Source: an uncultured Caldithrix sp. (GTDB lineage Bacteria > Electryoneota > AABM5-125-24 > Hatepunaeales > Hatepunaeaceae). Taken from it: a stretch of 64,000 nt of DNA. This document shows, piece by piece, positions 19,999 through 57,502 of the stretch; the first letter of the stretch is position 1; every line of letters starts with the position of its first letter. The notes below the pieces were generated by a model. It was not told the origin of the DNA. It did not search any database and saw only the letters and a program-made list of their open reading frames with translations. Made by a program: the position numbers and the translations under genes. The stretch lies in contig CAYHEC010000010.1 in the NCBI GenBank assembly GCA_964355675.1, positions 41,160-105,159 on the forward strand, given 5' to 3'.

Positions 19999-21149
19999 TA
20001 GTAGGTAAGTTTTTTGTCGATTTTTAATTCGATTGTAGATAGAATATCAGCGATTCGGTCTCCGGCACAGCCATCGCCGTATAGACTATCTGATGGGTAA
20101 TGTCCATGTGCAAGCTGGTGGGCAATTGCTTCTGTAATCTCTTGATGATCGTATCCGACATCCAACACATTCGAAGCGCGATCCCGACCACCCTGCCGAC
20201 TACCAATATTTACCACAGGAACTCCCAAGAAGGAAGATTCCCGTATTCCAACGCTTGAATTGCCAATTAGACAACGAGCTTGAGTGAGTAGATTCAGAAA
20301 ATCTTCAGGTGGTAAATTCTTATAAAAATATATATTACGAATATCATTTTGCTCGCGGAATAATCTCATCCCTTTAGAGATATGGTCAGAACCTGCGTCA
20401 ACATTGGGCCAGAACCAGAAAGTCGGCAGGTCAAGAGTTTTGACAGCCTTAAGGGTTTCGGTAATTTGAAAGAGCCCCTCATCGACTTCGGTCGTCACCG
20501 GATGTTGCATTACAATCAAATATCCGTTTTCAAGATTGAATGTGTGCCCAACTCCGCCATATTTGACCAAAGGGTTAAAATGCGAAATTGGATTCTTCTT
20601 GACTCGATCAGCCAAATCTATGGATGGACAACCGGTAATGAAAATCGTAGTAGGATCTTCCCCCATTTTTTCCACACGAACTTTGGCTTGAGAGTTAGAA
20701 ACGAAGTGAAAATTTGAGAGTTTGGTTACAGCATGCCGGACTTTCTCATCGATAGAGCCTGTTACTTCCCCGCCTTGAACGTGAGCAACGGTGATATTCA
20801 AATAGGATGCGGCTATAGCCGTTGCGATTGTCTCGTATCGATCTGCAACAGTTACAACAATATCAGGCTTGAGATTATCGAAAATCGTAGCAAGCTCAAC
20901 AACGCCTAATCCGGTTGATTTGGCGGCGGTGACAAGATTCTCACCCTCCAAAACCATATAGACAACGGCGTCGGGTGTAAAGCCATCACTCCGAATAACA
21001 TCGATGACAGGTCCATAACGCTCCAGGAGCGCCGAGGCGCCTACCACCAATTGTAATTTTAAATCCGGATGCAACTGCACAGCCTCCAGAACAGTCTTAA
21101 TACGAGAATAGCTTGGGCGCGCGGTTACAACGATACAGATATTTCGGAT
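19998..21149 (-). CDS. UDP-N-acetylglucosamine 2-epimerase, NeuC/WecB family; 5' end extended beyond the track ORF, candidate ATC start
   Basis: 'HVQGGEVTGSIDEKVRHAVTKLS' core motif; in-frame upstream codons encode 'RNICIVVTARPSYSRIKTVLEAV', which is the conserved NeuC/WecB N-terminus, with no ATG/GTG/TTG between the in-frame TAA TAA (21162-21167) and the GTG at 21080. Confidence 0.8.
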   Translation of the reverse strand: MRNICIVVTARPSYSRIKTVLEAVQLHPDLKLQLVVGASALLERYGPVIDVIRSDGFTPDAVVYMVLEGENLVTAAKSTGLGVVELATIFDNLKPDIVVTVADRYETIATAIAASYLNITVAHVQGGEVTGSIDEKVRHAVTKLSNFHFVSNSQAKVRVEKMGEDPTTIFITGCPSIDLADRVKKNPISHFNPLVKYGGVGHTFNLENGYLIVMQHPVTTEVDEGLFQITETLKAVKTLDLPTFWFWPNVDAGSDHISKGMRLFREQNDIRNIYFYKNLPPEDFLNLLTQARCLIGNSSVGIRESSFLGVPVVNIGSRQGGRDRASNVLDVGYDHQEITEAIAHQLAHGHYPSDSLYGDGCAGDRIADILSTIELKIDKKLTY

Positions 21150-22111
21150 AGTAAAATACCTTTATTAAAATTTGATGTTGAAATAAAAGACATTAGCTTT
21201 TCAGCCATAAATCGCTCTGTCGCATGCATCGACTGCCATGTTGCGCCACCGAGATGAGGTGTGATTAACAAATTCTCATTGGTTCTTGCATAATCGATCA
21301 GTATGTTCGAAGTATCAGTATTTGTTCTTTCCTCTGACAATACATCGAGTGCGGCGCCGGCTAAATGACCAGATTTCAGATGCTCAAGAAGTGCCGGATC
21401 ATCAATAATTGCTCCCCGCGAAGTATTTATCAATAATGATCCTTTGGGTAGCCAATCGAATTCTTCGGAACCGACCATCCCGGATGTATCTGCATTTAAA
21501 GGGACATGGATCGAAAGGACATCACAATTCTGAAAAAGCTCCTTCATGGTGTTATAGCGAACAAGACTGGGATGATTAAAATCCTCAATATCAAAATATC
21601 CAACCGACATCTTGAAAGCTTGCCCGAAACTTGCGACTTGTTTCCCCACTCGACCAAGACCAAGGATGCCAAGCCGTTTTCCAGCTAATTCAATTCCTTT
21701 AAAACGATCGCGATCCCACTGACCTTCACAAACAGAATTGAAGGCTTGAGGTATATTTCTCGCAAGTGAAAGTAATAGCGCCCAGGTATGCTCGGCAGTG
21801 GCGCGAATTGAAGAAAGAAACTCGTACTCACCACGAAGACTTAATACGGTAATCCCCAATTGCTTAGCAGAGTCCATGTCGATATGATCGACTCCGGTCG
21901 TTGGTGTGACTATCACTTTTAGTCTATGCCCTGAAGACATAAGTTCTTTATCAATATTGTGTTTCAGTCGTGTAATTAACACTTCGATAGACGGGATTTC
22001 GGTCAATAGCTCTTGTCTGGTCAGCTCTCCTTCACAATATTCACCCAACTTCTTATAAATATTCTGCGCTTCTGATGAGTAGTCAGACGGTTCAAGATTC
22101 CATATTCGCAC
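21125..22111 (-). CDS. D-isomer-specific 2-hydroxyacid dehydrogenase family (NAD-binding)
   Basis: 'GKRLGILGLGRVGKQVA' Rossmann motif and 'NTSRGAIID' / 'AALDV' catalytic region typical of D-2-hydroxyacid dehydrogenases. Confidence 0.8.
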   Translation of the reverse strand: MRIWNLEPSDYSSEAQNIYKKLGEYCEGELTRQELLTEIPSIEVLITRLKHNIDKELMSSGHRLKVIVTPTTGVDHIDMDSAKQLGITVLSLRGEYEFLSSIRATAEHTWALLLSLARNIPQAFNSVCEGQWDRDRFKGIELAGKRLGILGLGRVGKQVASFGQAFKMSVGYFDIEDFNHPSLVRYNTMKELFQNCDVLSIHVPLNADTSGMVGSEEFDWLPKGSLLINTSRGAIIDDPALLEHLKSGHLAGAALDVLSEERTNTDTSNILIDYARTNENLLITPHLGGATWQSMHATERFMAEKLMSFISTSNFNKGILLSEISVSL

Positions 22112-23118
22112 TATGCGAAGTCCTCTTCAGTTACCGGTCTGTTTTCGAGAACATCGTTCTTCAGTCTGCGTCCAATAATGGTTTCCAATTTGTCGAATCG
22201 CAAGCCTGCTCCGGCTTTCTTTAGAGTAACATCGTTCCTGGCTAAAACGCTCCCGGCTTTAAGATCATGAGAAGCAACCAGACTTTTTGCGAATATACTC
22301 CGAGTGGTTGAAAGCTCTTCGGCTATGGTATTTTTGGTCACGGGATTATTCTGGACCGTTTCGATAAACCTCACACCTGCCACCAAGTCTTTCAATTCCG
22401 AGGTAGTTATCGATGAGGAAACATCGGGGCCAAACATTTCTCGAGATAGGGTCACATGCACTTCAATTAGATCGACGCCGAGCATCGCAGAAGCAATCCC
22501 GGGATAGATTGTACCGCTGTGGTCGGAAAGCCCAACTTTACAACCGTAACGATTTTTATACAGCGGTATCAAATTCAATCCGACCTTTTCGGGAGGCGTA
22601 GGATACATCGATGTGCATTGTAATAAAGTAAGTTCATTCCCAAGAGTCTTGATGTACGATACAATTTCGTCTAATTCGGAAAGAGAACTCATTCCAGTAG
22701 AAATCCAAATTGGTAAAGCGGTGTCTGCCATCAATTGAAGTAGTGGCTTATTGGTGACTTCACCTGAGCCAACTTTCCATGCGGCGACACCGATTTTCGA
22801 GAGCATCTCGGCGGCTTCCATGGAAAAGGGAGAGCTTAAGAACAGCAAATTTTGTTCAACAGCATGTGCATTTAGCCCAAGCCACTGCTCCTGAGTGAAT
22901 TCCATTCGGCGCCAGTAATCATATCTGGTAGAGTCCTGATAACTGAATTTGACCCGCCATGGTTCGCTGGGAGTGCTTTCTGCCGCGGCAATATGCGTTT
23001 GAAACTTTATGCCATCAGCCCCGGTCCGTGCGACCGCATCGATGAAGGCATGGGCTTGGCCAAGACTGCCATCGTGGGTTTGGGAAACTTCGGCGATGAT
23101 CAGGATACTGTTTTTCAT
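22111..23118 (-). CDS. N-acetylneuraminate synthase family (NeuB/LegI/PseI-like nonulosonic acid synthase) with C-terminal SAF domain
   Basis: 'ILIIAEVSQTHDGSL' TIM-barrel start, 'GLSDHSG' metal-binding motif, C-terminal SAF/antifreeze-like domain. Confidence 0.9.
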   Translation of the reverse strand: MKNSILIIAEVSQTHDGSLGQAHAFIDAVARTGADGIKFQTHIAAAESTPSEPWRVKFSYQDSTRYDYWRRMEFTQEQWLGLNAHAVEQNLLFLSSPFSMEAAEMLSKIGVAAWKVGSGEVTNKPLLQLMADTALPIWISTGMSSLSELDEIVSYIKTLGNELTLLQCTSMYPTPPEKVGLNLIPLYKNRYGCKVGLSDHSGTIYPGIASAMLGVDLIEVHVTLSREMFGPDVSSSITTSELKDLVAGVRFIETVQNNPVTKNTIAEELSTTRSIFAKSLVASHDLKAGSVLARNDVTLKKAGAGLRFDKLETIIGRRLKNDVLENRPVTEEDFA

Positions 23119-23124
23119 CGAATA

Positions 23125-24180
23125 TTAATTTAAGCTATCTCTCAAATAACTTTCGAGTGTTTTCTCTATGTCCGGTCGATGCCGTATATTATAGTAATGG
23201 CGCATTTTCAATATCTTCAACTGAAGCGTACTCAAACTACTCAGGATCCGGTAGTGGGTCACAATATCGGCTGAAGCGCCGCTTTGTGCCATGTGGTTTA
23301 TTGCCAATTCAGCAGTCTGGCGAGAGTTCGCTAACAATTCCCATAATGCGATTTTTGCCCAGAACTGTTGACGTTCCCATGAATACTCGGGATTGAGGAT
23401 TTTCCTGATTAGCCACCTGAGCCTTGCTTTCCCTCTTACTTCCTTTATATTCGATACCCATTCCCCAGTTATCGGCTCTTTCTTATAATAGTCAGGAAAG
23501 TACTTTGCCCTTACTCGATTTCCTTCAATCTGTGTAGAGGTCATACTATTTGCTGATAAAGAAACAAGATATAAAGGCTCAGCTATTTCATAACCATTTG
23601 CAACTTGCAATATTCTTATCCAGAGCGGTACATCACCCATAGTAAAATCTGTATCATAACCACCGACGCTCAAAGCTACTTTCCGGTCGAAAATCACTGT
23701 AGCATCACCAAATCGGCGTCTTTTGAAAAATTGTCCAGTTAACATTTCGACACTAAGTTTTCTGGATTTAAATCTATTCTGAAAGACCTCTTCAAAAATA
23801 TGATTAAAAGGGGTTAAATACATAAAGCCAGTACCGACCATTTTATATTCGGGATTTTCTTTTAAGAATGACATTTGTTTTTCGATTCGGAGTGGGAAAC
23901 TAATATCATCAGCATCCATTCGTGCAATCCACTCCGTTGTAGCATTATCCAAACCCCATTGTAAAGCTCCCTGAAATCCAACGGGACCCAATTCAAATAC
24001 TTTTACACGGTGATCTGTTAAGAAAGTGCGGGCAATTTCGGCAGTGTTATCCGATGATCCGTTCTCTAAAACCCATAATTCAAAATCAGAGAAGGTCTGA
24101 TTAAGAATACTCCGAATCGCTGGGCGTATCGTGGATTCGGCATTATGGGCAGGAAGGAAAACTGTTAATGCAGAATTAAT
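23125..24180 (-). CDS. GT2-family glycosyltransferase; conserved N-terminus lies upstream of the track ORF, candidate ATT start
   Basis: Track ORF starts at TTG 23991 inside the domain ('RMDADD' follows); in-frame upstream codons encode 'LTVFLPAHNAESTIRPAIRSILNQTFSDFELWVLENGSSDNTAEI' (GT2 N-terminal motif) back to TAA at 24241-24243, with no ATG/GTG/TTG. Confidence 0.65.
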   Translation of the reverse strand: MNSALTVFLPAHNAESTIRPAIRSILNQTFSDFELWVLENGSSDNTAEIARTFLTDHRVKVFELGPVGFQGALQWGLDNATTEWIARMDADDISFPLRIEKQMSFLKENPEYKMVGTGFMYLTPFNHIFEEVFQNRFKSRKLSVEMLTGQFFKRRRFGDATVIFDRKVALSVGGYDTDFTMGDVPLWIRILQVANGYEIAEPLYLVSLSANSMTSTQIEGNRVRAKYFPDYYKKEPITGEWVSNIKEVRGKARLRWLIRKILNPEYSWERQQFWAKIALWELLANSRQTAELAINHMAQSGASADIVTHYRILSSLSTLQLKILKMRHYYNIRHRPDIEKTLESYLRDSLN

Positions 24181-25389: not shown

Positions 25390-26409
25390 TCATCTCCCAC
25401 GGTAAATGTTTTCGCTTTTTCCGTGTAGCTCCAAATCAAGAATCGCGATATCAGCATCAACCATCAGTTTGACCAGTTGATCAAATCGTATTTTTGGTTC
25501 CCAACCAAAATCTCGCTTTGCTTTCGACGCATCGCCGCATAGCAAATCAACTTCTGTCGGGCGAAAATAATTTGAGTCCACTTCCACGTAGTCCTTCCAA
25601 TCTAAATCGACATGGGAAAATGCCGCGTCCAAGAACTCCCTGATCGTGTGGGTTTCTCCGGTTGCACATATATAGTCGCCCGGATTATCTTGTTGCAGCA
25701 TCATCCACATCGCTTCGACATACTCAGGCGTATAACCCCAATCCCTTTTGGCGTCGAGATTGCCTAAATATAATTTTTTATCAAGTCCAGCCATGATTCG
25801 AGCCAGAGCTCGAGTGATTTTTCGCGTTACAAACGTTGGACCTCGTCGAGGAGACTCGTGGTTGAATAAAATGCCATTGCTGGCAAATATTCCGTATGCT
25901 TCGCGGTAATTCACCGTCATCCAATAGGCGTAAACTTTGGCAATTCCGTAGGGACTGCGTGGATAAAATGGGGTCGTTTCCTTCTGAGGAGTCTCGACCA
26001 CCTTACCAAACATCTCCGAGCTTGAGGCTTGATAAAAACGACATTTTAGGTTTGTCTCACGAATTGCTTCGAGTAGTCGGATAGTTCCCAGAGCGGTGAT
26101 ATCTCCAGTGTATTCAGGGATTTCAAAGCTAACCTTGACATGGCTTTGAGCGCCTAAATGATAGATTTCATCGGGTGAAAAGCGATACAAAAGTTTGATG
26201 AGACTGGTGGAATCGCTTAAATCAGCATAGTGGAGGAATAACTTGACGCCATTGATATGCGGGTCCCGGTAGAGATGATCGATGCGCTGAGTATTGAAGG
26301 TGCTGGCTCGACGGATGATTCCATGAACTTCATATCCCTTGTTGAGGAGGAACTCCGCGAGGTACGATCCGTCCTGTCCAGTGATTCCGGTGATTAAGGC
26401 TGTTTTCAT
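25390..26409 (-). CDS. gmd: GDP-mannose 4,6-dehydratase
   Basis: '[34 protein letters not shown]' is the classic Gmd N-terminus; 339 aa. Confidence 0.95.
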
Positions 26410-26410
26410 A

Positions 26411-27604
26411 TTAAGGCAATGGCTGAGTTTGTGGTTTGTGGTGCAATCCAGAATTTATAATTGCTTGTTTTAACTCTCTCGCAATCATGTCTGGATCGAT
26501 TTCTTGGATACAGCGCGTTGTATCATATTTGCATTTCCAACTGCAGTTGTAACAATCCATTTTATGATTAGCTACCCTATTTATTTTTGGATTACCCCAT
26601 GGGTAGAATCGCCCAAAGTGGCCGCCACCCATTATCCCAACAGTAGGTTTACGCAATGCAACACCGGCATGGAGACCGGCAGATTCGACGCTTAAAACAG
26701 CATCCGAGGATTCTATGGCGCTGATGAATTCCCTTGTTGATGTTTTGCCGCAATGACTAGCGGCAGACTTAACATTAGCACAGGAATCAAGATACTTCAA
26801 TATCTGTTCTCCTATTATTCTGTCCTCTGGAGCCCCTAAGATATTGATGCTGAAGCGAAATTCGCTCAGCTTTTCGAGCACGAGTCTGTACTTCTCTGCA
26901 GGGTAAACTCTTGTTTGAACTGCGGCGCCCGGACAAAGGGTAAGCTTAATGCAATCAGGCTTGGCAGTAATTCTTTCCGTTGCCCATTCCTTATCTGAAC
27001 CATTGAGCCAGAATTCAGGCCAAATGTCAATCGGCTCAACTTGCATGCCCAGCATGTTGAGAAACCTTGCTGTCACCACTAATTCATGAATAAGTTCTTC
27101 ATCTTTTGTCAACTTCAATTGGGTCGAATAATACGGGGCGGCAAACTCATCCTCATGTAATGATTGATTGCAATAATCGCCTGAAATTCCGTATTTGAGC
27201 GGTGATCTAATCGACTTGAGCAACGAATGATGACCGTTTATCTTTCCGGTTGGCGAGCGAACTGGTAAAATAAGTAAATCGCATTTATATTTTCTGTTGA
27301 TACTTCTTCTGATCAGCATTCTCAAAGTATCGCTACGATAGAGCCTCCAAACTCCTTTGGAATTCTGAAACGGCAGAGTCAATAAATCTTCCCATAGAAT
27401 TATCTTATCGACGTATGGACACAATTCAATTAAATTGCGAATTCGTTCTTTAACACATATTGTGATTTCTGCATTTGGATAGAAATTCCGAATGTGCCGT
27501 AATGCACCAGAGAAAAGAATTACGTCGCCAAGGTTATCAGGACGTAATATTAAAATTCGTTTAATTATATGACTATACGATGTTAAATTGGGATTCACAT
27601 GCAT
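26411..27604 (-). CDS. GT9-family glycosyltransferase (heptosyltransferase-like)
   Basis: '[23 protein letters not shown]' N-terminal motif typical of GT9 (RfaF/RfaC-like). Confidence 0.65.
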
Positions 27605-27611
27605 TAATTAA

Positions 27612-29699
27612 TTATCTAAATAGTAGCGAATCTATTTTTTGCGGTATCCTCCGGATACGCTTATATAATTTTCCATGTCTAATAGAACCATATGATAAAC
27701 CAAACCCTATATATTTCTGCGCAGGCACGCCGATCTTGTTGGATATTTTAGCATAATTTAAAATTGCCGTCGCGTGTTCTGCTAAACCTACCGACCACTT
27801 TCCGCCATCCCATTTAAGGTCTGTGCGGCAACCTTTTTGTTCAAATGCATTTGCCAGCTTGGGTTCGCGATTAATGTAGTACGAGATAACATATTCGAAA
27901 CTTTCCGGGTTCAGCCAAATATTGGGAGGTACATTACTCAAATCATTTAGTTCCTTGGCTAATTTCTCAGTAATTTGCCAATCTGATATAAACCGATAAT
28001 AACTCCTGCCTTTATTGTTATCGAGAATGTCGCGCTTTTTCTGCAAAGGTATTGTGCTTAAAATCGACTCATTTACAGTCGCAACCAATTGCAAGGCGGA
28101 AATAATTGATGTCTTAGTTAATTCCTCCAGTATGCGGTATTTGTTTTCGTCCATCGTAAACCATTCTTGCCTCAAGTTATCCACGAGAGCCGACGAATGT
28201 TCATGTTTATTTTCTACCGAAATACCAGACCGTTCAGCAAGTGAATAAGTGTATTTAAGACTATTTAACATACAAAGAAGGACTCGAATCCGGACGGGAC
28301 TACTATACGCAATCCAAATTATGTCATGCGGTATTTTTACTAATAAGTAATCTACCAACATACCGAAAAAGGCGCCTTGCGAAACTGACGACGATGAAAC
28401 ATCGCCTAAGTCTATTCCAGAAAGAAGCCTATAATTAAATATAGGAAATAGCTTTGGGAGTATTCCAATAGCACCTTCCGTGCAGACGTATGGTGGATGC
28501 GTCATGAGTAATCGAACCCATTGAGGAAAGTTTTCAGGCTTGTAATTTTGCCAGGTCAATTTCACATCGTCTGGGTACACAATCAAATAATCAAGGTCGG
28601 AAATGCCAGGTGCACCAACTTGTCCAATTTGATATATTGCAATCGGTTTTGGGGCAAGTGAGTTCCAGAATTTCGTTACAAGTTCAGTCGTTTCTTGATA
28701 ACGTTGGTCTTGAATTTGAAGAGGTAGATCAGTTACCGGGCGAGAGAAAACACGTGGACCAGGTTCCTTGGGAGCGACATCTCGTATTTTTGTTTGCATG
28801 CTATGGAGTAATGCAAGTACACGTCGCGGGAAATCTTCTCCTAAAACATTTTGAACATCGATGACTTGCTTACTATTTCGAGAATTCCGTCTTGCAATCT
28901 TTTGTAATAACGATGGACGATGAATTTGGAGCGCAAACCAAACTAATATCCGTGATGGCTTATGTCGCGGCCCAAGAGTTGCCCTTAAATTTGTCGCTAA
29001 TACTATTGGTTCCCATTCTTCTTTCGTGAAGTATTTTTCTGCGATAGGGAATGTGTCCCTTTTGTATCTAAATTCTCCTGTCATACGTTGGAGAAATAAG
29101 GCTGGTAAAATCATCAGATTCCCCAAGCAGTGTTCCACATCGTAATAATCTCTCATCATAAATGGTTTCGAACTCCAAGCATTGAAGTAACCAGAAAACA
29201 TTACAAGCATGGAATCTGTAATTTCGTTGGAAGGTACGACCATCACTTCGATTGGATCATTGGATTCAAAAAGATCAACGCCATAATTAAAGAGTATCAG
29301 TGGAAATTTCGCTTCTGGATAAGAGGACAACTCGCTTTGCATTAGATAATAGGGTTCATGATGCATAAAAGGATCGAAGGCATAAGTTAAGGCAAGAATC
29401 TCGCTACGAAGCTTATTATACTTACTCTGCATTCGCGTATCTGTTAAAGTCGAATCCTTCACAATAAACGTCAAATCTAAGTCGCTAAATCCTTCAACAT
29501 CATCAAGTGTCGCGACACTTCCATGAATAATCGCCCGTAAAAACAGATCTTTGTTTTGGTTTGCCAATTTATGCAACTTCCATACGGGCCAATATTTTGA
29601 CTGGCTGCCACCTCTGTCAAGCCATGATTGATAATTTGTGCCAGATGGAACTTGATGGATCATAATCTGTTTATCAGACTTATTCAACTTGCTTGCCAT
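27612..29699 (-). CDS. Uncharacterised protein with two Pol-beta-like nucleotidyltransferase-fold motifs
   Basis: 695 aa; 'HGSVATLDDVEGFSDLDLTFIV' and 'IGQVGAPGISDLDYLIVYPDD' both fit the G[GS]-x(9-13)-D-h-D-h nucleotidyltransferase signature; no closer family recognised. Confidence 0.4.
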   Translation of the reverse strand: MASKLNKSDKQIMIHQVPSGTNYQSWLDRGGSQSKYWPVWKLHKLANQNKDLFLRAIIHGSVATLDDVEGFSDLDLTFIVKDSTLTDTRMQSKYNKLRSEILALTYAFDPFMHHEPYYLMQSELSSYPEAKFPLILFNYGVDLFESNDPIEVMVVPSNEITDSMLVMFSGYFNAWSSKPFMMRDYYDVEHCLGNLMILPALFLQRMTGEFRYKRDTFPIAEKYFTKEEWEPIVLATNLRATLGPRHKPSRILVWFALQIHRPSLLQKIARRNSRNSKQVIDVQNVLGEDFPRRVLALLHSMQTKIRDVAPKEPGPRVFSRPVTDLPLQIQDQRYQETTELVTKFWNSLAPKPIAIYQIGQVGAPGISDLDYLIVYPDDVKLTWQNYKPENFPQWVRLLMTHPPYVCTEGAIGILPKLFPIFNYRLLSGIDLGDVSSSSVSQGAFFGMLVDYLLVKIPHDIIWIAYSSPVRIRVLLCMLNSLKYTYSLAERSGISVENKHEHSSALVDNLRQEWFTMDENKYRILEELTKTSIISALQLVATVNESILSTIPLQKKRDILDNNKGRSYYRFISDWQITEKLAKELNDLSNVPPNIWLNPESFEYVISYYINREPKLANAFEQKGCRTDLKWDGGKWSVGLAEHATAILNYAKISNKIGVPAQKYIGFGLSYGSIRHGKLYKRIRRIPQKIDSLLFR

Positions 29700-30921
29700 A
29701 TTTTAAAATGAGCCACATCTTAATTATGAACTTTTCAATAATGAGTGGGAAGTAAGTCAAAACAATAAAGCGCAAAGCCACACTTTCAGGCATATATCGA
29801 CGTGCCTGACGCAGTTCGTCTCTGGCAAGGGTTTGATAGCCAGCGAGTCTTAATGCATTACCCCACTTCAAATGGAATTTAGACGCACTCACCTTAGCTT
29901 CTTGAAGCTCACTCTCTGGAAGTTGAACAGGTTGACGACCTCGAACGGGGTTTCTTTCTAATTGCTCAAAGATCGAATTCAATCGAATTAGCCAGGTGTG
30001 ATCTTTCAGACATCTTTCTCTGCCGCGTCTGGCAATTTGCTCTCTTTCTTCGTCATGCGATAGATAGTATTCGATCTTTCGGCGAGCCTCATCTGGATCT
30101 CTGAAGCAAACTACTTCCTGATCCAACACAAAACAATCTTCCAATCCGTCGGTGTATTCGGTAAGCAAAAATCCACCGCACATACAAACCTCAAAGACAC
30201 GTGCTTTGAGTGTCTTGATATTTTTGTTATGCACATCTTTTGCAAAATCCAGGTTAATTTTGCTGACATTAAAAACCCTGACCATCTCATCAAAAGGCAG
30301 GAAGCGATTCCAACCTCCGCCAAACTTTTCGATCTTCAGATCCGTCGTTTCTATGGCTGTCATAAACGCCTCGCGGTCAGCTATCTTGGTCCCAACAAAG
30401 GAAACATCATATTCATAGGTAACATTAATCTTCTTAAATAATTCTGGAGATGCGGCGGGGGGAACATAAAAATAGGGGATTTTCAACGACTGGTATTTTT
30501 CTATCACTGATGGTGCTACGGTAACACAATAATCCAGATGAGGGATATAGAGCTTGGTAAAACTATCAAAAGCGGAGTGATCGTCCCAAAACCAACAAAT
30601 TACGATGCAACCTTGCGACCTTATAAAATCAAAAGTCTCTTCCATAACTTCAAATCCCCAGCGTTGGGCGAGCCACAAGACGTATTTAGGTCGCTCCCTT
30701 TTAACCAAATCAATAATTTCTTGGTTGGTTTTCTTCATCCCAACATCGAAATATCTTTTGAACCAATCGTAGCGAACAAATTTTGAAAATACTTGAGGTA
30801 GCGCTTCTGAAAAAGGTCGGTCCTTATCAAAACGCACCAACCCTATAATGCCGTTTTTTCCGGCTAAAGGGTGCTGGCTATAATCGCTGTTGGTCAGCAA
30901 TAATATCTTAGCGTCGATCAT
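29680..30921 (-). CDS. CgeB-like glycosyltransferase (Glyco_trans_1_2 / DUF3880-type)
   Basis: 'KARVFEVCMCGGFLLTEYTDGLEDCF' matches the CgeB-family C-terminal motif. Confidence 0.55.
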   Translation of the reverse strand: MIDAKILLLTNSDYSQHPLAGKNGIIGLVRFDKDRPFSEALPQVFSKFVRYDWFKRYFDVGMKKTNQEIIDLVKRERPKYVLWLAQRWGFEVMEETFDFIRSQGCIVICWFWDDHSAFDSFTKLYIPHLDYCVTVAPSVIEKYQSLKIPYFYVPPAASPELFKKINVTYEYDVSFVGTKIADREAFMTAIETTDLKIEKFGGGWNRFLPFDEMVRVFNVSKINLDFAKDVHNKNIKTLKARVFEVCMCGGFLLTEYTDGLEDCFVLDQEVVCFRDPDEARRKIEYYLSHDEEREQIARRGRERCLKDHTWLIRLNSIFEQLERNPVRGRQPVQLPESELQEAKVSASKFHLKWGNALRLAGYQTLARDELRQARRYMPESVALRFIVLTYFPLIIEKFIIKMWLILKYGKQVE

Positions 30922-30969: not shown

Positions 30970-32124
30970 TTAGAAGAAATTATCCATAATGCCTTCAAGT
31001 ATGGTAAGCCTCCCATCGTTGACGGACTGATTGTTGCCTATATAGAAGGCGTTGGTGTGTAGGAAATCTGCGTTTTTAAATCCTTCGGCGTTATAGTGTT
31101 TCTTCAGGAAAGGTTGGCGCAGGAGGTTTCCGGCAACGAGTGGGCGGGACTCGATGCCAGCATCGGCAATAATCTTCTGAAACCTTTTCTTTTGTTCACA
31201 GTCCTTAAACAGAAATTGAAGAACAAAAGAGGATATCCCTTCGGATTCCGCTACAATAAGGGCGTCGCTATATTTCTTACATATCTCAACAAAACGGCTA
31301 TAGTTGCGATTCCTTATTTCAATGAATTGGTCTAATTTGTCAAGTTGTGTTAGACCCAAAACCGCGTGGAGTTCAGTGTTTCGAACATTGAACCCGTCGG
31401 TAAGAAATAGAAATTGAAAATCAATGTACGGATACTTAGTTTTGATGTCGTCATGGTATTCAATCGGCAGTTCGCGAGCCAGTCCATGCGACCTTTTCAA
31501 CAACAACAACCGGTATAATTCTTCGTTGTTGGTGCAGACCATGCCGCCTTCGACTGTAGTCATGTGGTGACCCCAGTAAAAGCTGAAGGTGCTGCCTATT
31601 CCGAAGTTCCCAACCTTTACCTTGTCAATAGTGGCTCCATTTGCTTCACAGCAATCCTCCATGATCAAAATGCCACGATCGCCGATGATTTTCTTGATGC
31701 GGGAAATGTTAGCTGGAAACCCGATCAGGTGAGTAATAAATATCGCTTTTGTTCTGTCGGTGATGCATTTCTGAAGCTGATCGTAATCAAAGGAGAAATC
31801 CTGAAGATTGACGTCAACAAAGACAGGTTTCAACCCGCTCTGCATTACCGGGGTAACATTGGTTGTCCATGTAACGGCGGGTACGACAACTTCATCGCCA
31901 TCATTCAAGCCATACATCTCCTTCAAAGCATTGATTAATACCAGATTGGCTGAACTGCCCGAATTGACAAACACGCTATACTTACATCCCTGCCATTTGG
32001 AATAGCGGTTCTCAAATTCTTTTACTTTTGAAAATTGAGTAAATCTGGTTGTTTCCCTGATAAAGGAGACAAGAGTGCTAAGGTCATCTTGACTCAATAT
32101 ATCTTCTTGTAGTTTCCAGAGCAA
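30970..32124 (-). CDS. DegT-family PLP/PMP-dependent sugar 3-dehydratase (ColD / E1-like)
   Basis: DegT-family motifs 'VNSGSSANLVL', 'GDEVVVPAVTWTTN'; the usual Schiff-base Lys is replaced by His in 'GSTFSFYWGHHMTTVEGG', the hallmark of ColD/E1 3-dehydratases. Confidence 0.75.
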   Translation of the reverse strand: MLWKLQEDILSQDDLSTLVSFIRETTRFTQFSKVKEFENRYSKWQGCKYSVFVNSGSSANLVLINALKEMYGLNDGDEVVVPAVTWTTNVTPVMQSGLKPVFVDVNLQDFSFDYDQLQKCITDRTKAIFITHLIGFPANISRIKKIIGDRGILIMEDCCEANGATIDKVKVGNFGIGSTFSFYWGHHMTTVEGGMVCTNNEELYRLLLLKRSHGLARELPIEYHDDIKTKYPYIDFQFLFLTDGFNVRNTELHAVLGLTQLDKLDQFIEIRNRNYSRFVEICKKYSDALIVAESEGISSFVLQFLFKDCEQKKRFQKIIADAGIESRPLVAGNLLRQPFLKKHYNAEGFKNADFLHTNAFYIGNNQSVNDGRLTILEGIMDNFF

Positions 32125-32186
32125 TTTATAAATTCCCCATGGTTGTTTTGCCCGATTTGATCAGTATTCCAGTTTGAAAGTCCATT

Positions 32187-33137
32187 TCAAACCCTGATAT
32201 ATGGGTAATTGGCTACAAACCAATTAATGGTATTTTCAATTCCTTGTTCTATCTTAGTGTATTCGAAATTAGGAAGATATTTCGCCAATTTGGAAGTGTC
32301 GGCAGGTTTGCGGTATTGTCCATCAGACTTGGATGTATCCCAAATCACCTTACCCATAAATCCGATTTTTTCGACTATAGTTTCAATCAGATATTTTATC
32401 GTTACTTCTTCTCCAGTGGAGAAATTAATTGGGGTTTCTTCTTCGTAATATTTCAGTGCCCAAACGGCCAATTTGGCGGCGTCATCAGATAACAAAAACT
32501 CCCTTAATGGCGTCCCGCTCCCCCAGACAATAAAGTCCGTATTATTCTTTTTGGCTAAATAACACTTGTGAATTAGTGATGGAATAGCATGTCCATCTTC
32601 CAGATTCCAGTTATCATTTGGCCCGTACATGTTTGTTGGTATGGCAGTAATGAAATTGCAACCCCATTCGTTCCGGTATGCCCGACTCTGCACATCTAAC
32701 ATCCTTTTTGCATAGGAGTATCCATAATTAGACGGGTGGGGTTGACCGTCATGGATCGCCTCTTCTTTTAACGGGAAGGCAATATTATCGGGATAAACAC
32801 ATGTCGATAGAAAAGACATTAATTTATTTACCTTGATTAGGCGAGAGCATTCTAATACATTAGTATTTATCAATATATTGCTTCTATAGAATTCACCGAG
32901 ATGTGCCATATTTCCGCCCAATCCACCGACTCGAGCCGCCAAATGAATCACGCCTTCGGGATGGATATCCTTAATTATTTTTAAGGTTTCATCAAATTTC
33001 GTAAGGTCGGCATCCTTATGTGTGATAAATACAAAATTCGGGAGATTTAACCTCTGGATGGCGTGACCAACCAATCCATCTCCACCGGTCACTAAAATTC
33101 TACTCATTGATTGCTCCCTGATTGAGATTCCACTCAA
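32187..33137 (-). CDS. GDP-L-fucose synthase-like 3,5-epimerase/4-reductase (Fcl / ColC family)
   Basis: 'RILVTGGDGLVGHAI', 'LAARVGG', 'PTNMYGPNDNW', 'VWGSGTPLREFL' closely match the Fcl family. Confidence 0.8.
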   Translation of the reverse strand: MSGISIREQSMSRILVTGGDGLVGHAIQRLNLPNFVFITHKDADLTKFDETLKIIKDIHPEGVIHLAARVGGLGGNMAHLGEFYRSNILINTNVLECSRLIKVNKLMSFLSTCVYPDNIAFPLKEEAIHDGQPHPSNYGYSYAKRMLDVQSRAYRNEWGCNFITAIPTNMYGPNDNWNLEDGHAIPSLIHKCYLAKKNNTDFIVWGSGTPLREFLLSDDAAKLAVWALKYYEEETPINFSTGEEVTIKYLIETIVEKIGFMGKVIWDTSKSDGQYRKPADTSKLAKYLPNFEYTKIEQGIENTINWFVANYPYIRV

Positions 33138-34116
33138 TCGTTCGTTGTAAACCGTCTTTAAAAGAAATAAACTGCTTTATTTTAAATTCATTACACACTT
33201 TGCTTACGTCAAGCTTTACGATGCCCGGGGCATCCTTCATCATCTTTCCCGTGCCAGCTTCGCACGTTGCTCCATATACTTCAGCAATTAACTGGGCCAT
33301 TTCGTAAATAGATACGGTTTCTGTTGCCCCGACGTTATATAGTAACTCTTTTCCTTCAAGCATTATCTTGAACATCATAAATAGTGCGTCTGAAATATAA
33401 CAATACGAACGAAGATCTTTTCCTTCATCCATTAGTTTGATGTGCTTATCAATAAAGGCTTTTTTCATAAAGTTGCCCATCGCCCGTTCATCATGGATTG
33501 AAAGACCAGGTCCATAGACTAAGGCTACGCGTGCGATCTTGGCATCTACACCAAACTTTCGATTATAGATAAAGCACAGCGCTTCCCCGACTTTTTTAGA
33601 CTCAATATAAGAGGCTCTGCCACTTGAAGTCAGGGAATTTCCTGGATATGATTCCTTCGTCGGTATTTCATTCGGAGGCGGGTTTCCATAAACTTCACTG
33701 GTGCTAAGGAGAAGAAATTTTGCGTTATTTGCCTTGCTGATATCTAATAGGTCTTTGGTAGCGTTTACATTCAGTGAGATAGTTTTTAGTTCATCCCCCA
33801 AGAACATTTTTGGCCCGCTATAACAGGCGGAATGAATTACGAAATCAACAGGATGTGAAAATGAGAAGGGTTGTGAAAGGTCATGAGTGATATAATTAAA
33901 TCTATCATCCTTCCATACCGGAGGATTCTTACTGACACAATGTGCCATAATATTCGCATTATAATATTCATTAGCAGTACTTAACAAGTTCACTATGTAA
34001 TTTCCAATAAGTCCGTTACTGCCTGTTACGAGAAAACGTTTATCGAACAGTGCTTCGAAGTTGCCAAAATTCGTTAGCAGGTTTCGGCAATCTTCTCTAA
34101 TCAAGGTTGAATTCAT
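33100..34116 (-). CDS. NAD-dependent epimerase/dehydratase (UDP-glucuronate decarboxylase-like SDR)
   Basis: 'FLVTGSNGLIGNYI' Rossmann motif and 'YIESKKVGE' YxxxK motif; start taken at internal Met 34116, giving an ATGA stop/start overlap with the upstream gene. Confidence 0.7.
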   Translation of the reverse strand: MNSTLIREDCRNLLTNFGNFEALFDKRFLVTGSNGLIGNYIVNLLSTANEYYNANIMAHCVSKNPPVWKDDRFNYITHDLSQPFSFSHPVDFVIHSACYSGPKMFLGDELKTISLNVNATKDLLDISKANNAKFLLLSTSEVYGNPPPNEIPTKESYPGNSLTSSGRASYIESKKVGEALCFIYNRKFGVDAKIARVALVYGPGLSIHDERAMGNFMKKAFIDKHIKLMDEGKDLRSYCYISDALFMMFKIMLEGKELLYNVGATETVSIYEMAQLIAEVYGATCEAGTGKMMKDAPGIVKLDVSKVCNEFKIKQFISFKDGLQRTIEWNLNQGAINE

Positions 34117-35006
34117 ATTAGCCGTTCGATTTTGTTTTTTATTCCTGGCGCATCCAAGCCCAAGGCAGAACAATGCTGCTCATAGCTTCCATAGTTTGTC
34201 AGGAATTTGTCTTCTATCCCCAAACGAAACTGCCGGACATTTTCAAGACCTTCAAGCGCTCTGGACACTTCATCACCAAGTCCCCCGATAATGTTATGTT
34301 CTTCGATGGTTAGCACCTTGCCAGTTTTAATAGCGCTTTGCCTTATAAGCTCAATGTCCAGTGGTTTGATCGTATGAATGTAAATAATTTCTGCATCCAT
34401 TAATTTCGCTACTGTGATAACATCTTTAAGTTGAGGCCCCGTAACAATGATCGAAAGAGATTTACCTTCTTTAATCTTAATGCCTTCGCCAACCTTTATC
34501 TGGATCGAATCAAATTGAACGCCATGTTTTACCGCGGGTAATCTAAAATAGGTTGGATTGCAATTATTGTAAGTTTGTTTAAAAAGTTCATCGAACTCAA
34601 GCTCGGAGGTTGGATATACAATTTGCATCCCAGACAAGGGTTTTAAAATGGCAAAATCCTCATAACAGTGATGAGTACATCCGAGCGAAGCGTAATCAAA
34701 TGCTGAACCGACGCTAATTATGCTGGCGCCTAACTTTTGATAGCAAAGATCTACTTTGATTTGTTCATAACATCTTTCGAGAATGAAAGGCGCAATGCTG
34801 TGCACTACAGGATACATGCCAGTTGCCGATAAACCAGCCGCCATGCTGATAATTGTTTGCTCGCAAATTCCCAAGTTGTAAAATCGTTCGGGATGTTTAT
34901 TTTGAAAATTCCGTAATAGAAATACACTGATATCGCCCATCAATACGACTAATTTTTCGTCAAAATCGCCGACAGCTTCAATTGTCCGAGAAAATTGATT
35001 TCTCAC
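34113..35006 (-). CDS. Transketolase, C-terminal (pyrimidine-binding) subunit of a split transketolase
   Basis: Pyrimidine-binding and C-terminal regions recognisable; ~300-aa size typical of split TktB-type subunits. Confidence 0.8.
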   Translation of the reverse strand: MRNQFSRTIEAVGDFDEKLVVLMGDISVFLLRNFQNKHPERFYNLGICEQTIISMAAGLSATGMYPVVHSIAPFILERCYEQIKVDLCYQKLGASIISVGSAFDYASLGCTHHCYEDFAILKPLSGMQIVYPTSELEFDELFKQTYNNCNPTYFRLPAVKHGVQFDSIQIKVGEGIKIKEGKSLSIIVTGPQLKDVITVAKLMDAEIIYIHTIKPLDIELIRQSAIKTGKVLTIEEHNIIGGLGDEVSRALEGLENVRQFRLGIEDKFLTNYGSYEQHCSALGLDAPGIKNKIERLI

Positions 35007-35827
35007 TCCAATTCCTTCAGGATGACCTTTAATTCTTCCTCAGTTGGGCTCCTGTGGTGCCAAGTGAAGCCGTTGTTTTCCAAAGTCTTCGATCCTTTCC
35101 CTTTTACCGTGCGAGCGATTACCATTGAAGGTCTATCCGTTTTACAGTTTGAAATAGTTCTAAAGGTTTGTTTCAGCTCATTGATATCATGGCCGTTGAC
35201 ATCATAGACTTTCCAGCCAAACGCTGACCATTTTTCGACCGGGTTAGTAATTGGCAAGCACCTGCTGGTTGATTCATTCAAATCTAAAATTCCAATAAAA
35301 TTATTCAATTTACAATTTGCGGCAACCATAGCGGTTTCCCAGATAGTTCCTTCGTTACACTCTCCATCACCGATCAGAGAATAAACATAATTGGGTTTAC
35401 ATTTTATTTTCATGCTTAACGCGATACCGGCAGCGAATGGAAAACCGTGTCCGAGGGATCCAGTGGAAGCCTCGACTCCCGGAACTTTGTTTCTATCGGG
35501 GTGTCCGCCGAGTGGGCTGTCATATTTACCGAAAGTGATAAGATCATTCTCGGAAATATATCCTGCCTTTTGTAATACCGCATACAAAGCAACGGAAGCA
35601 TGACCTTTACTGAGAATAAAATAATCTCTATCCTCCCAATCCGGGTTTTCCGGGTGATATTTCAGCACATCCTTATAGAGAACAGTCAGTATATCCACGA
35701 TCGAGAAAGAGCTGGGGATATGACCTTCTTTTGCTTCAAAACACAATTTCAGAATTGATTTTCTGATTTCGATTGGATTTATCATTTTAGAGCAATATTT
35801 GGAAAACCGTGAGCGTTTACGGACCAT
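35003..35827 (-). CDS. Transketolase, N-terminal TPP-binding subunit
   Basis: 'GHASVALYAVL' and TPP-binding 'GDGECNEG' motif; overlaps partner subunit by 4 nt. Confidence 0.85.
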   Translation of the reverse strand: MVRKRSRFSKYCSKMINPIEIRKSILKLCFEAKEGHIPSSFSIVDILTVLYKDVLKYHPENPDWEDRDYFILSKGHASVALYAVLQKAGYISENDLITFGKYDSPLGGHPDRNKVPGVEASTGSLGHGFPFAAGIALSMKIKCKPNYVYSLIGDGECNEGTIWETAMVAANCKLNNFIGILDLNESTSRCLPITNPVEKWSAFGWKVYDVNGHDINELKQTFRTISNCKTDRPSMVIARTVKGKGSKTLENNGFTWHHRSPTEEELKVILKELE

Positions 35828-35839
35828 CTCTTGAAATAC

Positions 35840-36657
35840 TTAAGATAATTTGCTTTTAAATCTTTCCATTTCAATAAATATTGAATCTCTACCATTATCA
35901 TAAACCATTAAATAATTTAAGCTTGATAAGTAATTATTGATATTATGATAGTTATAATGGACCGTCTCCACAATCAGAAGACTTGGACGGTATTTTCCCC
36001 AATCATTACTCTTCAATACTTCTAATTCATATCCTTCAACATCTATTGACATAAAATCAATAGTGTCAGATGGTTTCAAGTATTTTTCTAAAATATTAGA
36101 TAAAGGTGCCACTTCGACTTCTATTGTTTTTATGGCGGAAGCTTTATGCCAGATAAATGATTTTCTGCCATTTTATTATTGAAAGAAGATCCGTTACTAA
36201 ATCCTTCTATCATATAAAAATCAGCTTTGCCCAACATTGGACCAATGCCAATGTTCAGATTAATATCTTCTGGCCTAGCCTCAACTAGTTTATTAAAAGG
36301 ACTTAATTGTGGTTCAATGTTAATTCCTCGCCAGCCTTTTAAGTAGAACCTAGTAGCATGAGAAGGAAACTCGTTGGGATCATTGGCTCCTATCTCAACA
36401 TAATACCCATGACTCTTAAAATCTAGGAGAAAATCTATCAACAGATCCTCATGATCATAACCATCATAAGATCCGAAAACCTTATGTATGAATTTTTTGC
36501 CTCTCCCAGAAAAGTCATTATAGTTCGGATCATTGCATTCCTCAGCGTTTTTTGCCAGAATGTTTTTTGCCAGAATAGACTTTATTTTCCTCAAGATTCT
36601 GACAATTAGAGGTGGTATAAAATCTAATAGTGTAATGTGTTTGTTAAAGATCTTCAT
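35840..36657 (-). pseudogene. FkbM-family methyltransferase interrupted by a frameshift (two ORFs 36130..36657 and 35840..36112)
   Basis: Upstream ORF carries 'YYVEIGANDPNEF' (SAM-binding), downstream ORF carries 'IDFMSIDVEGYELEVL' (FkbM C-terminal motif); the two are in different frames, junction near the A5 run around 36127-36131. Confidence 0.55.
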
Positions 36658-36792: not shown

Positions 36793-38067
36793 TTATTTTA
36801 AACTTAAGCTCCAATTTGTCCCACCCAGAACACAGCTAAAATGCCTCGCTACTGCGCCATAGCGTGCCATTGTGGAACCGGTTTCTATGATGTTAAAACT
36901 TGAAACATTTTTACGTGTATCAATGCTTAGCTTGTTTGGATTGTGTGCAGAAATATAAACAGTATACATGTCAGGGACAAGAAAGTTCTCCCTTATCCGA
37001 ATGGTTGCTTGATACAAACCGGGCTTAAGTTCCACAAACGCCTTATTATTTCCATCAGATAAACTACTAAATAATACATTAACATCATTAGAATTAGATA
37101 ACATAAAAGTGATTTCAGTATCTGTAGTGTGGCGCAATACTCTGAATTCAAGTCCAATCATAAACGGATTCAGAACATCTATATCCGCGCTCAGATTACC
37201 TTGATGGTCAGTTATCCAAACTTTTGTAAAGGATACGTTGGCGTCCAATTGAGGAACCAACGTAACAACTTTAGTTGTTTCTACTCTTTTATCAGTTATA
37301 TACTGGCTTATAATATCAGATACTACTCCAGTACCAGATATTCTGCCATTATCAAGTAATATCGCTTGAGTACACAATGACCGTACCGCTCCCATATTAT
37401 GACTCACAAACAGCACCGTCCGACCCTCGTGCGCGACTTCTCCCATTTTCCCAAGGCATTTTTTCTGAAACTCAACATCGCCAACGGCGAGTACTTCGTC
37501 AATAACAAGTATCTCCGGGTCCAGATGCGCCGCCACCGCGAATGCCAGGCGCACCTTCATGCCCGACGAATACCGCTTGACAGGAGTATCGATAAATTGC
37601 TCAACGCCGGAAAAGTCAACAATCTCATCGAACTTTCTGGTCACTTCAGCTTTTGTCATTCCAAGGATCGCGCCATTCAGAAATACATTCTCCCTACCCG
37701 TCAATTCCGGGTGAAATCCAGTCCCGACCTCAAGCAAAGCCCCGATTCGTCCTTTTATCTTGATCTCACCTGAGGTTGGCGCAGTTATATGTGAGATGAT
37801 TTTTAATAATGTTGACTTACCAGAACCATTCTTGCCGATAATGCCGAGTACCTCACCTTGATTAACTTCAAAGTTTATATCGCGCAACGCCCAGATGTAT
37901 TCGCCGCTCTTGTTGCCATGATCCATCTCGCCGATTTTTAGCAGTGGGTCAGGTTTGCCTCTCGCTCTCGCCCACCAGCGACTAAGGTCTCCTGACAATG
38001 TACCTCCCCCGATAAGTCCCAATTTATAGAACTTAGAGAGGTTTTCGACCTTGATAACGACACTCAT
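36793..38067 (-). CDS. ABC transporter ATP-binding protein for glycan export (Wzt/TagH/KpsT-like) with C-terminal extra domain
   Basis: Walker A 'GKNGSGKST', signature 'YSSGMKVRLAFA', Walker B 'ILVIDEV'; ~180-aa C-terminal extension as in Wzt carbohydrate-binding domains. Confidence 0.9.
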   Translation of the reverse strand: MSVVIKVENLSKFYKLGLIGGGTLSGDLSRWWARARGKPDPLLKIGEMDHGNKSGEYIWALRDINFEVNQGEVLGIIGKNGSGKSTLLKIISHITAPTSGEIKIKGRIGALLEVGTGFHPELTGRENVFLNGAILGMTKAEVTRKFDEIVDFSGVEQFIDTPVKRYSSGMKVRLAFAVAAHLDPEILVIDEVLAVGDVEFQKKCLGKMGEVAHEGRTVLFVSHNMGAVRSLCTQAILLDNGRISGTGVVSDIISQYITDKRVETTKVVTLVPQLDANVSFTKVWITDHQGNLSADIDVLNPFMIGLEFRVLRHTTDTEITFMLSNSNDVNVLFSSLSDGNNKAFVELKPGLYQATIRIRENFLVPDMYTVYISAHNPNKLSIDTRKNVSSFNIIETGSTMARYGAVARHFSCVLGGTNWSLSLK

Positions 38068-52118: not shown

Positions 52119-52326
52119 TGTTACCTCATGTAATAATTTGCACAAGATTGAGGTGTTTCTGTGATTGGATGTGCGACCAATTTCACAAGATTGCCTATAA
52201 AGGCCACCTCCGACGTTTAATATAAATACAATAGTTGAGGAACTCAAGTTGAAATCAAAAGAATCTAAAAACAAGTTAGTTAAGTGGCGCGATTTATAGT
52301 AATGATCAGGTCAAATTAGTGTAGTA

Positions 52327-57238: not shown

Positions 57239-57405
57239 AGGATCGCCTCGGATTATTAAGGTTTGATGTTAAAAAAAATCGAACGAATGCAATACTGTAT
57301 TTAGGGAAAATTTGGAATAATAATGTCATCTGTAAATACTAAAATAGGTGTCTCTATGCGAGGACGAGTTCTTCGAATTATTCTGAATTTGCGCCGACAT
57401 GTCCA

Positions 57406-57433
57406 CGCGGACGCCCTCGTCCGCGCTTTTTTT
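57406..57433 (+). terminator. Intrinsic-terminator-like hairpin with T7 tract on the plus strand
   Basis: CGCGGACG-CCCT-CGTCCGCG (8-bp stem) followed by C + TTTTTTT (57427-57433); a second interrupted hairpin + T5 at 57448-57479; both flanking genes are minus-strand. Confidence 0.45.
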
Positions 57434-57502
57434 GTGCTCGAATGTTCGGCGGCCGTAGGCGTCCGCCTGGACACTTTTTGGCATAAAGTTCGTCTGTGAA
57501 TA

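Follow-up and report, generated by a model that had tools for sequence, protein, structure and literature searches.

A paired-module nucleotidyltransferase-fold protein in a glycan export locus of an uncultured Caldithrix sp. and its probable role in surface glycan modification

The stretch of DNA analysed here, referred to as the window, comprises 64,000 nucleotides from an uncultured Caldithrix sp. (GenBank assembly GCA_964355675.1, contig CAYHEC010000010.1, positions 41,160 to 105,159 of the forward strand). Within a glycan gene cluster, ORF calling (ORF, open reading frame) and translation revealed an intact gene at 27612–29699, starting with ATG and encoding 695 amino acids. The initial annotation had described a real ORF of the correct position and length and had left its strand unstated; the gene is on the minus strand. 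A plus-strand reading of the same interval is ridden with stop codons and was rejected. The identical protein is encoded on five contigs from independent assemblies, and it is therefore not an assembly artefact. It is made up of two modules, designated A and B, with the following features.

27612–29699, minus strand: whole gene, two-module (A+B) nucleotidyltransferase-like protein of 695 amino acids (ORF, AlphaFold2 model, homologues).

28755–29699, minus strand: module A, residues 1–315, minimal nucleotidyltransferase (NTase) domain and helical bundle (stand-alone occurrence, sub-threshold PF01909 match, profile matches, conservation).

29466–29525, minus strand: motif 1, HGSVATLDDVEGFSDLDLTF, residues 59–78, GS loop and DxD metal-binding strand of module A (conservation, DSSP).

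27612–28754, minus strand: module B, residues 316–695, second, divergent NTase and helical-bundle module.

28566–28616, minus strand: motif 2, GAPGISDLDYLIVYPDD, residues 362–378, DxD strand of module B (conservation, hhalign register with motif 1).

27615–27698, minus strand: basic C-terminal tail, approximately residues 668–695, candidate peripheral membrane anchor (charge, helix of low predicted local distance difference test score, pLDDT).

The two motifs that first drew attention to the gene are both present at these positions. No other ORF of at least 150 amino acids in the window carries them (47 ORFs including this one, 20,327 residues). Of the shuffled versions of the protein's own sequence, 1.2% contained one loose motif and 0.01% contained two. 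The rarity of the motifs in shuffles and their absence from the other ORFs make it unlikely that the pair arose by chance; their invariance in homologues, described below, is the stronger argument.

The AlphaFold2 model of the whole protein has a pLDDT of 89.3 and a predicted template modelling score (pTM) of 0.80, with the C-terminal tail modelled as a helix of low pLDDT. It contains the alpha/beta core of the Pol-beta-like NTase superfamily followed by a C-terminal helical domain, the arrangement that forms the substrate cleft of aminoglycoside nucleotidyltransferases (ANTs). The top 19 Foldseek matches were all aminoglycoside or lincosamide nucleotidyltransferases, with weak E-values of 7e-3 or above. 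Module B was modelled separately because the evidence for a second domain was weakest there (pLDDT 85.5, pTM 0.86), and a fold search with this model returned the same list of enzymes. The matches of both modules indicate that each consists of a minimal NTase domain and a HEPN-like helical bundle. Together with the invariant motifs, they bear out the earlier suggestion of tandem Pol-beta-type nucleotidyltransferase domains, and we are highly confident that the protein contains two modules of NTase fold.

BLAST comparison of the query with its homologues indicated that the protein is a fusion, in which A spans approximately residues 5–310 and B approximately residues 320–670. Each module also exists as a separate protein of about 390–400 amino acids. 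When profiles of A and B were aligned with hhalign, the match was weak (E=2.8e-4 and 7.4e-4, probability 26–41%) and consistent, with the motifs in register: GFSDLDL of A was superimposed on GISDLDY of B, and HHGPYY on THPPY. The two modules are thus distant paralogues.

Module A was aligned from 50 sequences, with identities down to about 20%, and module B from 28. Residues G60, S61, S72, D73, D75, D109, H114, P133, P199, K213 and R239 of module A are invariant in all 50 sequences, and H59, D66, H113 and E121 are nearly so; K213 and R239 are basic residues in the helical domain. The residues invariant in all 28 sequences of module B are G359, G365, S367, D368, D370, H401, K455, P457, D459, S480, R510 and W513. 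The hG[GS] loop that follows strand 1 is H59-G60-S61 in module A, with the glycine and serine present in 50/50 sequences; its counterpart in module B is degenerate, the invariant G359 being followed by Q, E or S. The [DE]h[DE]h metal-binding motif takes the form D73-L-D75-L in module A (50/50) and D368-L-D370-Y in module B (28/28), so that the DxD motifs proposed in the initial annotation are kept by the homologues in both modules. In DSSP assignments on the models, strand 1 ends with HGS and strand 2 starts with DLD, and both DxD motifs are strand-initial. Candidates for the third carboxylate of module A are the invariant D109 and the near-invariant E121, which is glutamate in 45 of the 50 sequences; the window protein is the only one of the 50 with Q121. 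In module B no third acidic position is strictly conserved: the residue that aligns there, E408, is found in only 18 of 28 sequences.

Among full-length family members the window protein is the shortest. It lacks an N-terminal extension of about 100 amino acids that nearly every relative has, stand-alone A proteins among them, and a check of the upstream sequence showed that the extension is not encoded there behind a frameshift. At the other end, the last 40 residues of the window protein carry a net charge of +8, and the corresponding stretch of about 40 residues is basic almost throughout the family, with no conservation of its sequence. No transmembrane segments were found in the protein. 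The basic tail suggests peripheral membrane binding.

Sequence libraries gave little purchase on the family. PF01909 (NTP_transf_2) matched residues 45–102 below its gathering threshold (17.8 bits against 21, E=0.0044), in module A only; it was found at E<0.01 in 7 of 58 close members and never matched module B. A search of NCBIfam with the protein gave nothing meaningful, and phmmer against all PDB chain sequences gave nothing at E≤10. Profile searches of the PDB returned marginal matches for module A, confined to the GS..DxD core (KNTase, E=0.033; AAD(9), E=0.16), and no match for module B. No sequence-level homology to ANT(3'')/(9), ANT(4') or ANT(6) was found. The earlier view that the protein could not be placed in a known family thus holds, and it is assignable only to the Pol-beta-like NTase superfamily.

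A word-indexed search of 5.8 billion proteins yielded 58 relatives, none of which, the query itself aside, is more than 52% identical to it. When 1.84 billion cluster representatives were searched exhaustively by profile, 2,524 were found at E≤1e-3; of these, 1,566 also passed E≤1e-10 and 370 passed E≤1e-30. The closest A/B homologues, at about 42% identity, belong to Syntrophus and other Thermodesulfobacteriota. Members of the family appear in public databases as 'hypothetical protein' or, in two cases, 'predicted nucleotidyltransferase'; look-ups of the clusters gave no names, and a module A profile run against the named database contributed next to nothing. The family lacks a model in both Pfam and NCBIfam, literature searches found no description of it, and translated plasmid searches with the window protein and with the relative P0112 gave no match. 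The family is large, unmodelled and uncharacterised, and its distinctive traits are the twin-module build and a conserved glycan-export context.

This context was examined in 19 independent loci: the window, hits from a genome collection scanned with an alignment of 23 full-length sequences, and contigs encoding homologues. The ORFs of each locus were searched with custom profiles for A, B, GT9, Wzt and Wzm, and all ORFs were also clustered label-free. A Methanosarcinales locus (L018) in which only a B-like gene was seen was excluded from the 19. The lineages represented include Syntrophus/Syntrophaceae, Desulfobacteraceae, Thermodesulfobacteriota, Spirochaetales, Planctomycetia, Nitrospirae, Saccharibacteria, Anaerolineaceae and WOR-3. 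All 19 loci have a glycan-locus setting, which counts against a role in resistance by aminoglycoside adenylylation. In 18 of the 19, A and B form either one fusion protein or two neighbouring genes, always with A first. The exception, in Chloroflexia (L019, 7334–15004), has wzm-wzt followed by separate B-like ORFs of 465, 230, 296 and 337 amino acids and no recognisable A, which suggests a lineage-specific expansion or fragmentation of module B.

After generic GT2 and GT4 glycosyltransferases, the commonest companions of A/B are Wzt (14/19 loci) and Wzm (12/19), often in the arrangement wzm-wzt-AB. The Wzt proteins beside A/B are mostly about 400–450 amino acids long, and Wzt_C was matched in every one whose domains were checked. 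Wzt with Wzt_C is the transporter type that needs a capped glycan (PMC9445017). In most close relatives a GT9 glycosyltransferase is encoded directly after A/B or is joined to B at its C-terminal end, and in distant loci a GT4 enzyme takes its place. S-adenosylmethionine (SAM) methyltransferases are fused N-terminally to A in four relatives (P0005, P0013, P0032, P0036) or encoded directly upstream in several loci, and related loci repeatedly contain Methyltransf_21 or Methyltransf_24 genes. Giant relatives have the layouts AB-GT9-...-GT2, TPR-AB-MT11-GT9-GT2-TPR, AB-GT4 and AB-TPR, and fusions to tetratricopeptide repeats (TPR) are common among distant relatives. No known terminator family (kinase, Kdo transferase, GT99 or GT137, Kdo being 3-deoxy-D-manno-octulosonic acid) recurs across these loci. 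Directly upstream of A/B, a protein of about 323–325 amino acids with no Pfam match is encoded in L009/L022 (8605–9576) and L010/L021 (8712–9689), from the unrelated phyla Thermodesulfobacteriota and Planctomycetia; no cluster of such proteins is common to three or more loci.

In the window, the region from 3.7 kb to 39 kb is a single long glycan cluster on the minus strand. The neighbours named in the initial annotation, a GT9 enzyme on one side and a CgeB-like transferase on the other, are in place. The genes that bear most closely on A/B are as follows.

26411–27604, minus strand: GT9-family (GT-B) glycosyltransferase, immediately downstream, conserved partner (PF01075, 54.6 bits).

29680–30921, minus strand: Glyco_trans_1_2/DUF3880 (CgeB-like) glycosyltransferase, immediately upstream (Pfam).

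36130–36657, minus strand: FkbM-type methyltransferase-like ORF, directly downstream of wzt (PF05050, E=6.8e-4, sub-threshold).

36793–38067, minus strand: Wzt ABC-transporter ATPase with C-terminal Wzt_C (PF00005 and PF14524).

38108–38959, minus strand: Wzm ABC-2 permease (PF01061).

From the exporter end, the cluster begins with Wzm, Wzt with its Wzt_C domain, the FkbM-like methyltransferase fragment and a split transketolase. These are followed by two epimerase/dehydratases of the short-chain dehydrogenase/reductase (SDR) type, one of them Fcl-like, an RfbH/ColD-like enzyme dependent on pyridoxal phosphate (PLP), the CgeB-like glycosyltransferase, A/B and GT9. Beyond GT9 lie Gmd, GT2 genes, a CMP-nonulosonic-acid set, AsnB, a TagF-like gene, and GT4 and GT2 genes; a WaaL-type ligase and then more GT4 genes and sugar-modifying enzymes complete the cluster. 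The Wzt_C match in the window is just below the gathering threshold (PF14524, E=1.3e-6, 28.9 bits against 30.4), and the GT9 protein scores below the WaaC/WaaF equivalog cut-offs. The 3' end of the CgeB-like gene overlaps the start of A/B by 20 nucleotides, and a relative in the Planctomycetia locus sits farther from A/B.

Other parts of the cluster indicate what kind of glycan is made. On the minus strand at 25390–26409 and 30970–35827 are Gmd (TIGR01472, 535 bits against a cut-off of 415), the RfbH/ColD-like PLP enzyme, the Fcl-like reductase, a further SDR enzyme and the transketolase, whose N- and C-terminal halves are separate genes. This set suggests a GDP-linked 3,6-dideoxyhexose that may bear a two-carbon branch. 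The CMP-nonulosonic-acid set (19279–23118, minus strand), 4.5 kb from A/B, encodes a PseF-like cytidylyltransferase, a NeuC-like 2-epimerase, a D-2-hydroxyacid dehydrogenase and NeuB. Some members of the set also occur near A/B in other independent loci (L006/L023, L014, L015, L025), the cytidylyltransferase in 5/19 and NeuB and the 2-hydroxyacid dehydrogenase in three each; the pairing of cytidylyltransferase with 2-hydroxyacid dehydrogenase is unusual. A WaaL-type O-antigen ligase (Wzy_C, 12191–13702) and a TagF-like CDP-glycerol glycerophosphotransferase homologue (16031–17422) are encoded in the same strand-continuous cluster, also on the minus strand. They point to the predicted fate of the polymer: once exported it is probably ligated to lipid A-core, and it may carry phosphodiester-linked units. 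One GT2 ORF (23125–23991) matches its Pfam profile only from position 65 on and is separated by a gap of 260 nucleotides from 24251; it may be N-terminally truncated or mis-started.

The modules share their architecture, an NTase domain with a helical bundle, with AAD(9), ANT(3'')(9)/AadA, ANT(4')/KNTase, ANT(6) and LinB. Aminoglycoside and lincosamide O-nucleotidyltransferases adenylylate hydroxyls of sugar-like antibiotics. Unlike these enzymes, A and B have no detectable membership of their sequence families, measure 310–380 amino acids with extra elements as against about 250 for ANT, and are diverged, non-identical and obligately paired. They are found in glycan assembly and export loci, whereas ANT genes are found in resistance cassettes.

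A second comparison is with WbdD of E. coli O9a and K. pneumoniae O3 and with ORF6 of K. pneumoniae O7. These proteins, like A/B, are encoded beside wzm-wzt with a carbohydrate-binding domain on Wzt, are associated with or fused to a SAM methyltransferase, have a catalytic domain that resembles a class of aminoglycoside-modifying enzymes, have relatives that are N-terminal in multi-glycosyltransferase megaproteins, and end in a basic C-terminal tail. In E. coli O9a, wbdD occupies the position after wzm-wzt, as A/B often does, and the A/B loci have the same coupling of wzm-wzt to a cap-binding Wzt_C. In contrast, A/B contains no kinase, methyltransferase or Kdo-transferase module of the WbdD type, a methyltransferase being fused only in some homologues. 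WbdD and O7 ORF6 have the protein-kinase/aminoglycoside phosphotransferase (APH) fold (AmiN-like, PMC11231755), whereas A/B has the NTase fold. The 'new kinase' of K. pneumoniae O7 proved to be APH-like and not NTase-like. Polymerase-terminator megaproteins have been described for K. pneumoniae (PMC11231755), and the giant A/B relatives are similar in layout. A/B thus resembles the ANT-type O-nucleotidyltransferases in its fold and probably also in the chemistry that it performs, and is a member of neither the ANT nor the WbdD-type family.

A role in glycan assembly is very likely, and the enzyme probably adds a chemical group to a cell-surface glycan. The best explanation overall, which we favour tentatively, is that it is a two-module transferase modifying a lipid-linked glycan, possibly as an export cap. 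The fold, the paired modules, the residue conservation, the synteny and the domain fusions are directly supported; the donor, the acceptor, the product and capping are what we infer. For transfer onto a glycan hydroxyl the balance is about even, and a capping or terminator role is on the unlikely side. The initial annotation had proposed addition of a phospho-alcohol or nucleotidyl group to the glycan. The synteny upholds its glycan context, and the part that invoked a LicD-type phospho-alcohol route is considered below.

The protein would be a soluble, probably membrane-peripheral enzyme built from two anciently duplicated modules. A and B would form an obligate pair, as an intramolecular pseudo-heterodimer here and, in other lineages, as the products of two neighbouring genes. 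We liken the putative pseudo-heterodimer to the homodimers of KNTase and LinB. Module A has the full predicted catalytic signature (GS loop, D73-x-D75, D109, H113/H114, K213 and R239). Module B (D368-x-D370, K455, D459, R510) is more likely an auxiliary or second substrate-binding site because it has no strictly conserved third acidic residue. The enzyme would act on the cytoplasmic side of the membrane, in concert with the neighbouring GT9-type glycosyltransferase and in many lineages also with a SAM methyltransferase, their common substrate presumably being the lipid-linked glycan exported by Wzm-Wzt. The proposed reaction is a Mg2+-dependent attack of a sugar hydroxyl on the alpha-phosphate of a nucleoside triphosphate, or on a nucleoside diphosphate-activated phospho-donor; the NTase fold predicts chemistry at the alpha-phosphate and not at the gamma-phosphate. 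The acceptor would probably be the residue added by the partner glycosyltransferase at the non-reducing end, and the product a nucleotidyl- or phosphodiester-modified residue, plausibly terminal at that end. This residue, possibly also methylated, may be the cap that is read by the C-terminal domain of Wzt; in Wzx/Wzy loci it would be a decoration instead.

Several observations weigh against this proposal, and above all against capping. We know of no report of a nucleotidyl or phosphodiester cap. The small methyltransferases beside wzt could alone give an ordinary O-methyl cap, and the FkbM-like ORF of the window is a possible alternative source of a methyl cap. The extended coiled-coil ruler of WbdD-type proteins is absent from the model of the window protein; some giant relatives only have candidate helical linkers, picked out by a crude home-made coiled-coil heuristic that is not reliable. 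At least three loci carry Wzx/Wzy-type genes and not Wzm-Wzt, so the A/B cassette is not strictly bound to ABC export. The methyltransferase of L003 is a sugar N-methyltransferase of the DesVI/TylM1 type and is probably unrelated to the A/B cassette. A link to WbdD-like methyltransferases was also considered and is unsupported, since the fused methyltransferase of P0005 matched no PDB sequence and that of L003 is of the type just described.

Modification of the glycan itself has to be weighed against a role in making its donor, in which A/B would be an unconventional sugar-phosphate (or acid-phosphate) nucleotidylyltransferase feeding GT9 with an NDP- or ADP-activated donor. GT9 enzymes characteristically use ADP-activated heptose, which fits this idea, as do the A/B-GT9 fusions if they join two consecutive steps; a scan of part of the window turned up no RmlA/ManC-type nucleotidylyltransferase. 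However, clustering of the 19 loci revealed no sugar kinase or mutase co-occurring with A/B, the distant A/B loci adjoin GT4 and not GT9, and the locus sugars can derive from the common GDP-mannose and UDP-GlcNAc pools. The nearest folds, moreover, act on hydroxyls of bulky sugar-like acceptors and not on phosphates. We consider a donor-making role improbable.

Much the same low probability attaches to the relationship with LicD and fukutin raised in the initial annotation, in which a CDP- or CMP-activated alcohol or acid would provide a phospho-substituent that is moved to the glycan. LicD, fukutin and FKRP belong to the NTase-fold superfamily, have a DxD motif and act on glycans, and the NTase-type DxD fold of A/B is in keeping with them. 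Yet PF04991 (LicD) had zero matches in 92 scanned family members, and no LicD/FKRP-type structure was among the top fold matches. CTP_transf_3 cytidylyltransferases are encoded near A/B in 5/19 loci, but these are of the CMP-ulosonic-acid (PseF-like) type, and most loci lack them. In the Planctomycetia locus a GDPD gene and a faint NTP_transf_3 gene lie upstream; these, and the TagF-like gene of the window, would also suit such a route, although no CDP-alcohol pathway or supply genes are conserved.

Much less probable is a protein target, with A/B acting as a protein AMPylase or regulator, or as an MNT-HEPN-type toxin-antitoxin or defence pair merely sited in glycan loci. Fold and profile searches returned MNT, HEPN and the DrrA AMPylation domain among other matches, and the TPR fusions of distant relatives are in line with such a target. 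MNT and HEPN proteins nevertheless have only a third of the size of an A/B module, the NTase and helical domains are fused within one module which is then duplicated, and no HEPN nuclease motif (Rx4-6H) is conserved in the family consensus or among its invariant columns. The cross-phylum synteny with wzm-wzt and GT9, and the covalent fusions to GT9, GT2, GT4 and methyltransferases, are likewise not a toxin-antitoxin setting. Equally improbable is a non-catalytic scaffold or pseudo-enzyme organising a polymerase/terminator/exporter complex: the lack of a strictly conserved third acidic residue in module B, the Q121 of the window copy and the reliance of known systems on protein-protein scaffolds (PMC11231755) would accord with it, but conservation of GS, DxD, D109, H113/H114, K213 and R239 at 20–25% overall identity is an active-site-like pattern.

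Elsewhere in the window, a plus-strand ORF of 2,829 amino acids (40419–48908) encodes LVIVD repeats, many Ig-like domains of the HYDIN/ASH/Cep192 type and a C-terminal Por_Secre_tail, the sorting signal of the type IX secretion system. This ORF implies a host from the FCB group (Bacteroidota-like), whereas Thermodesulfobacteriota, Syntrophus among them, supply the closest A/B homologues. Past this giant ORF lies a second glycan cluster (52379–61337, minus strand), with a 743-amino-acid GT2+GT4 fusion, a GT1-like protein of 478 amino acids, a DegT aminotransferase, a 918-amino-acid protein with an N-terminal GT2 domain and a hexapeptide acyltransferase. Five ORFs of 401–591 amino acids have no Pfam match at E≤1e-5 (103–1554, 1779–3422, 48989–50485, 50499–52274 and 62135–63340).

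The family comprises about 2,500 representative clusters and is linked to Wzm-Wzt in at least seven phylum-level lineages, mostly uncultured. Even if its role proves to be ordinary, a family model would be worthwhile, as it would annotate thousands of 'hypothetical proteins' in polysaccharide loci. The known export-licensing caps are few, namely methylation, (methyl)phosphorylation and Kdo, and come from enterobacterial and Aquifex prototypes (PMC9445017, PMC11231755). If A/B modifies the glycan terminus, it would represent new chemistry for glycan capping and for surface-antigen diversity. The scaffold of the aminoglycoside nucleotidyltransferases would then have a housekeeping relative in the cell envelope, in parallel to the APH scaffold in WbdD and O7 ORF6, and such a relative would bear on the origin of the resistance enzymes.

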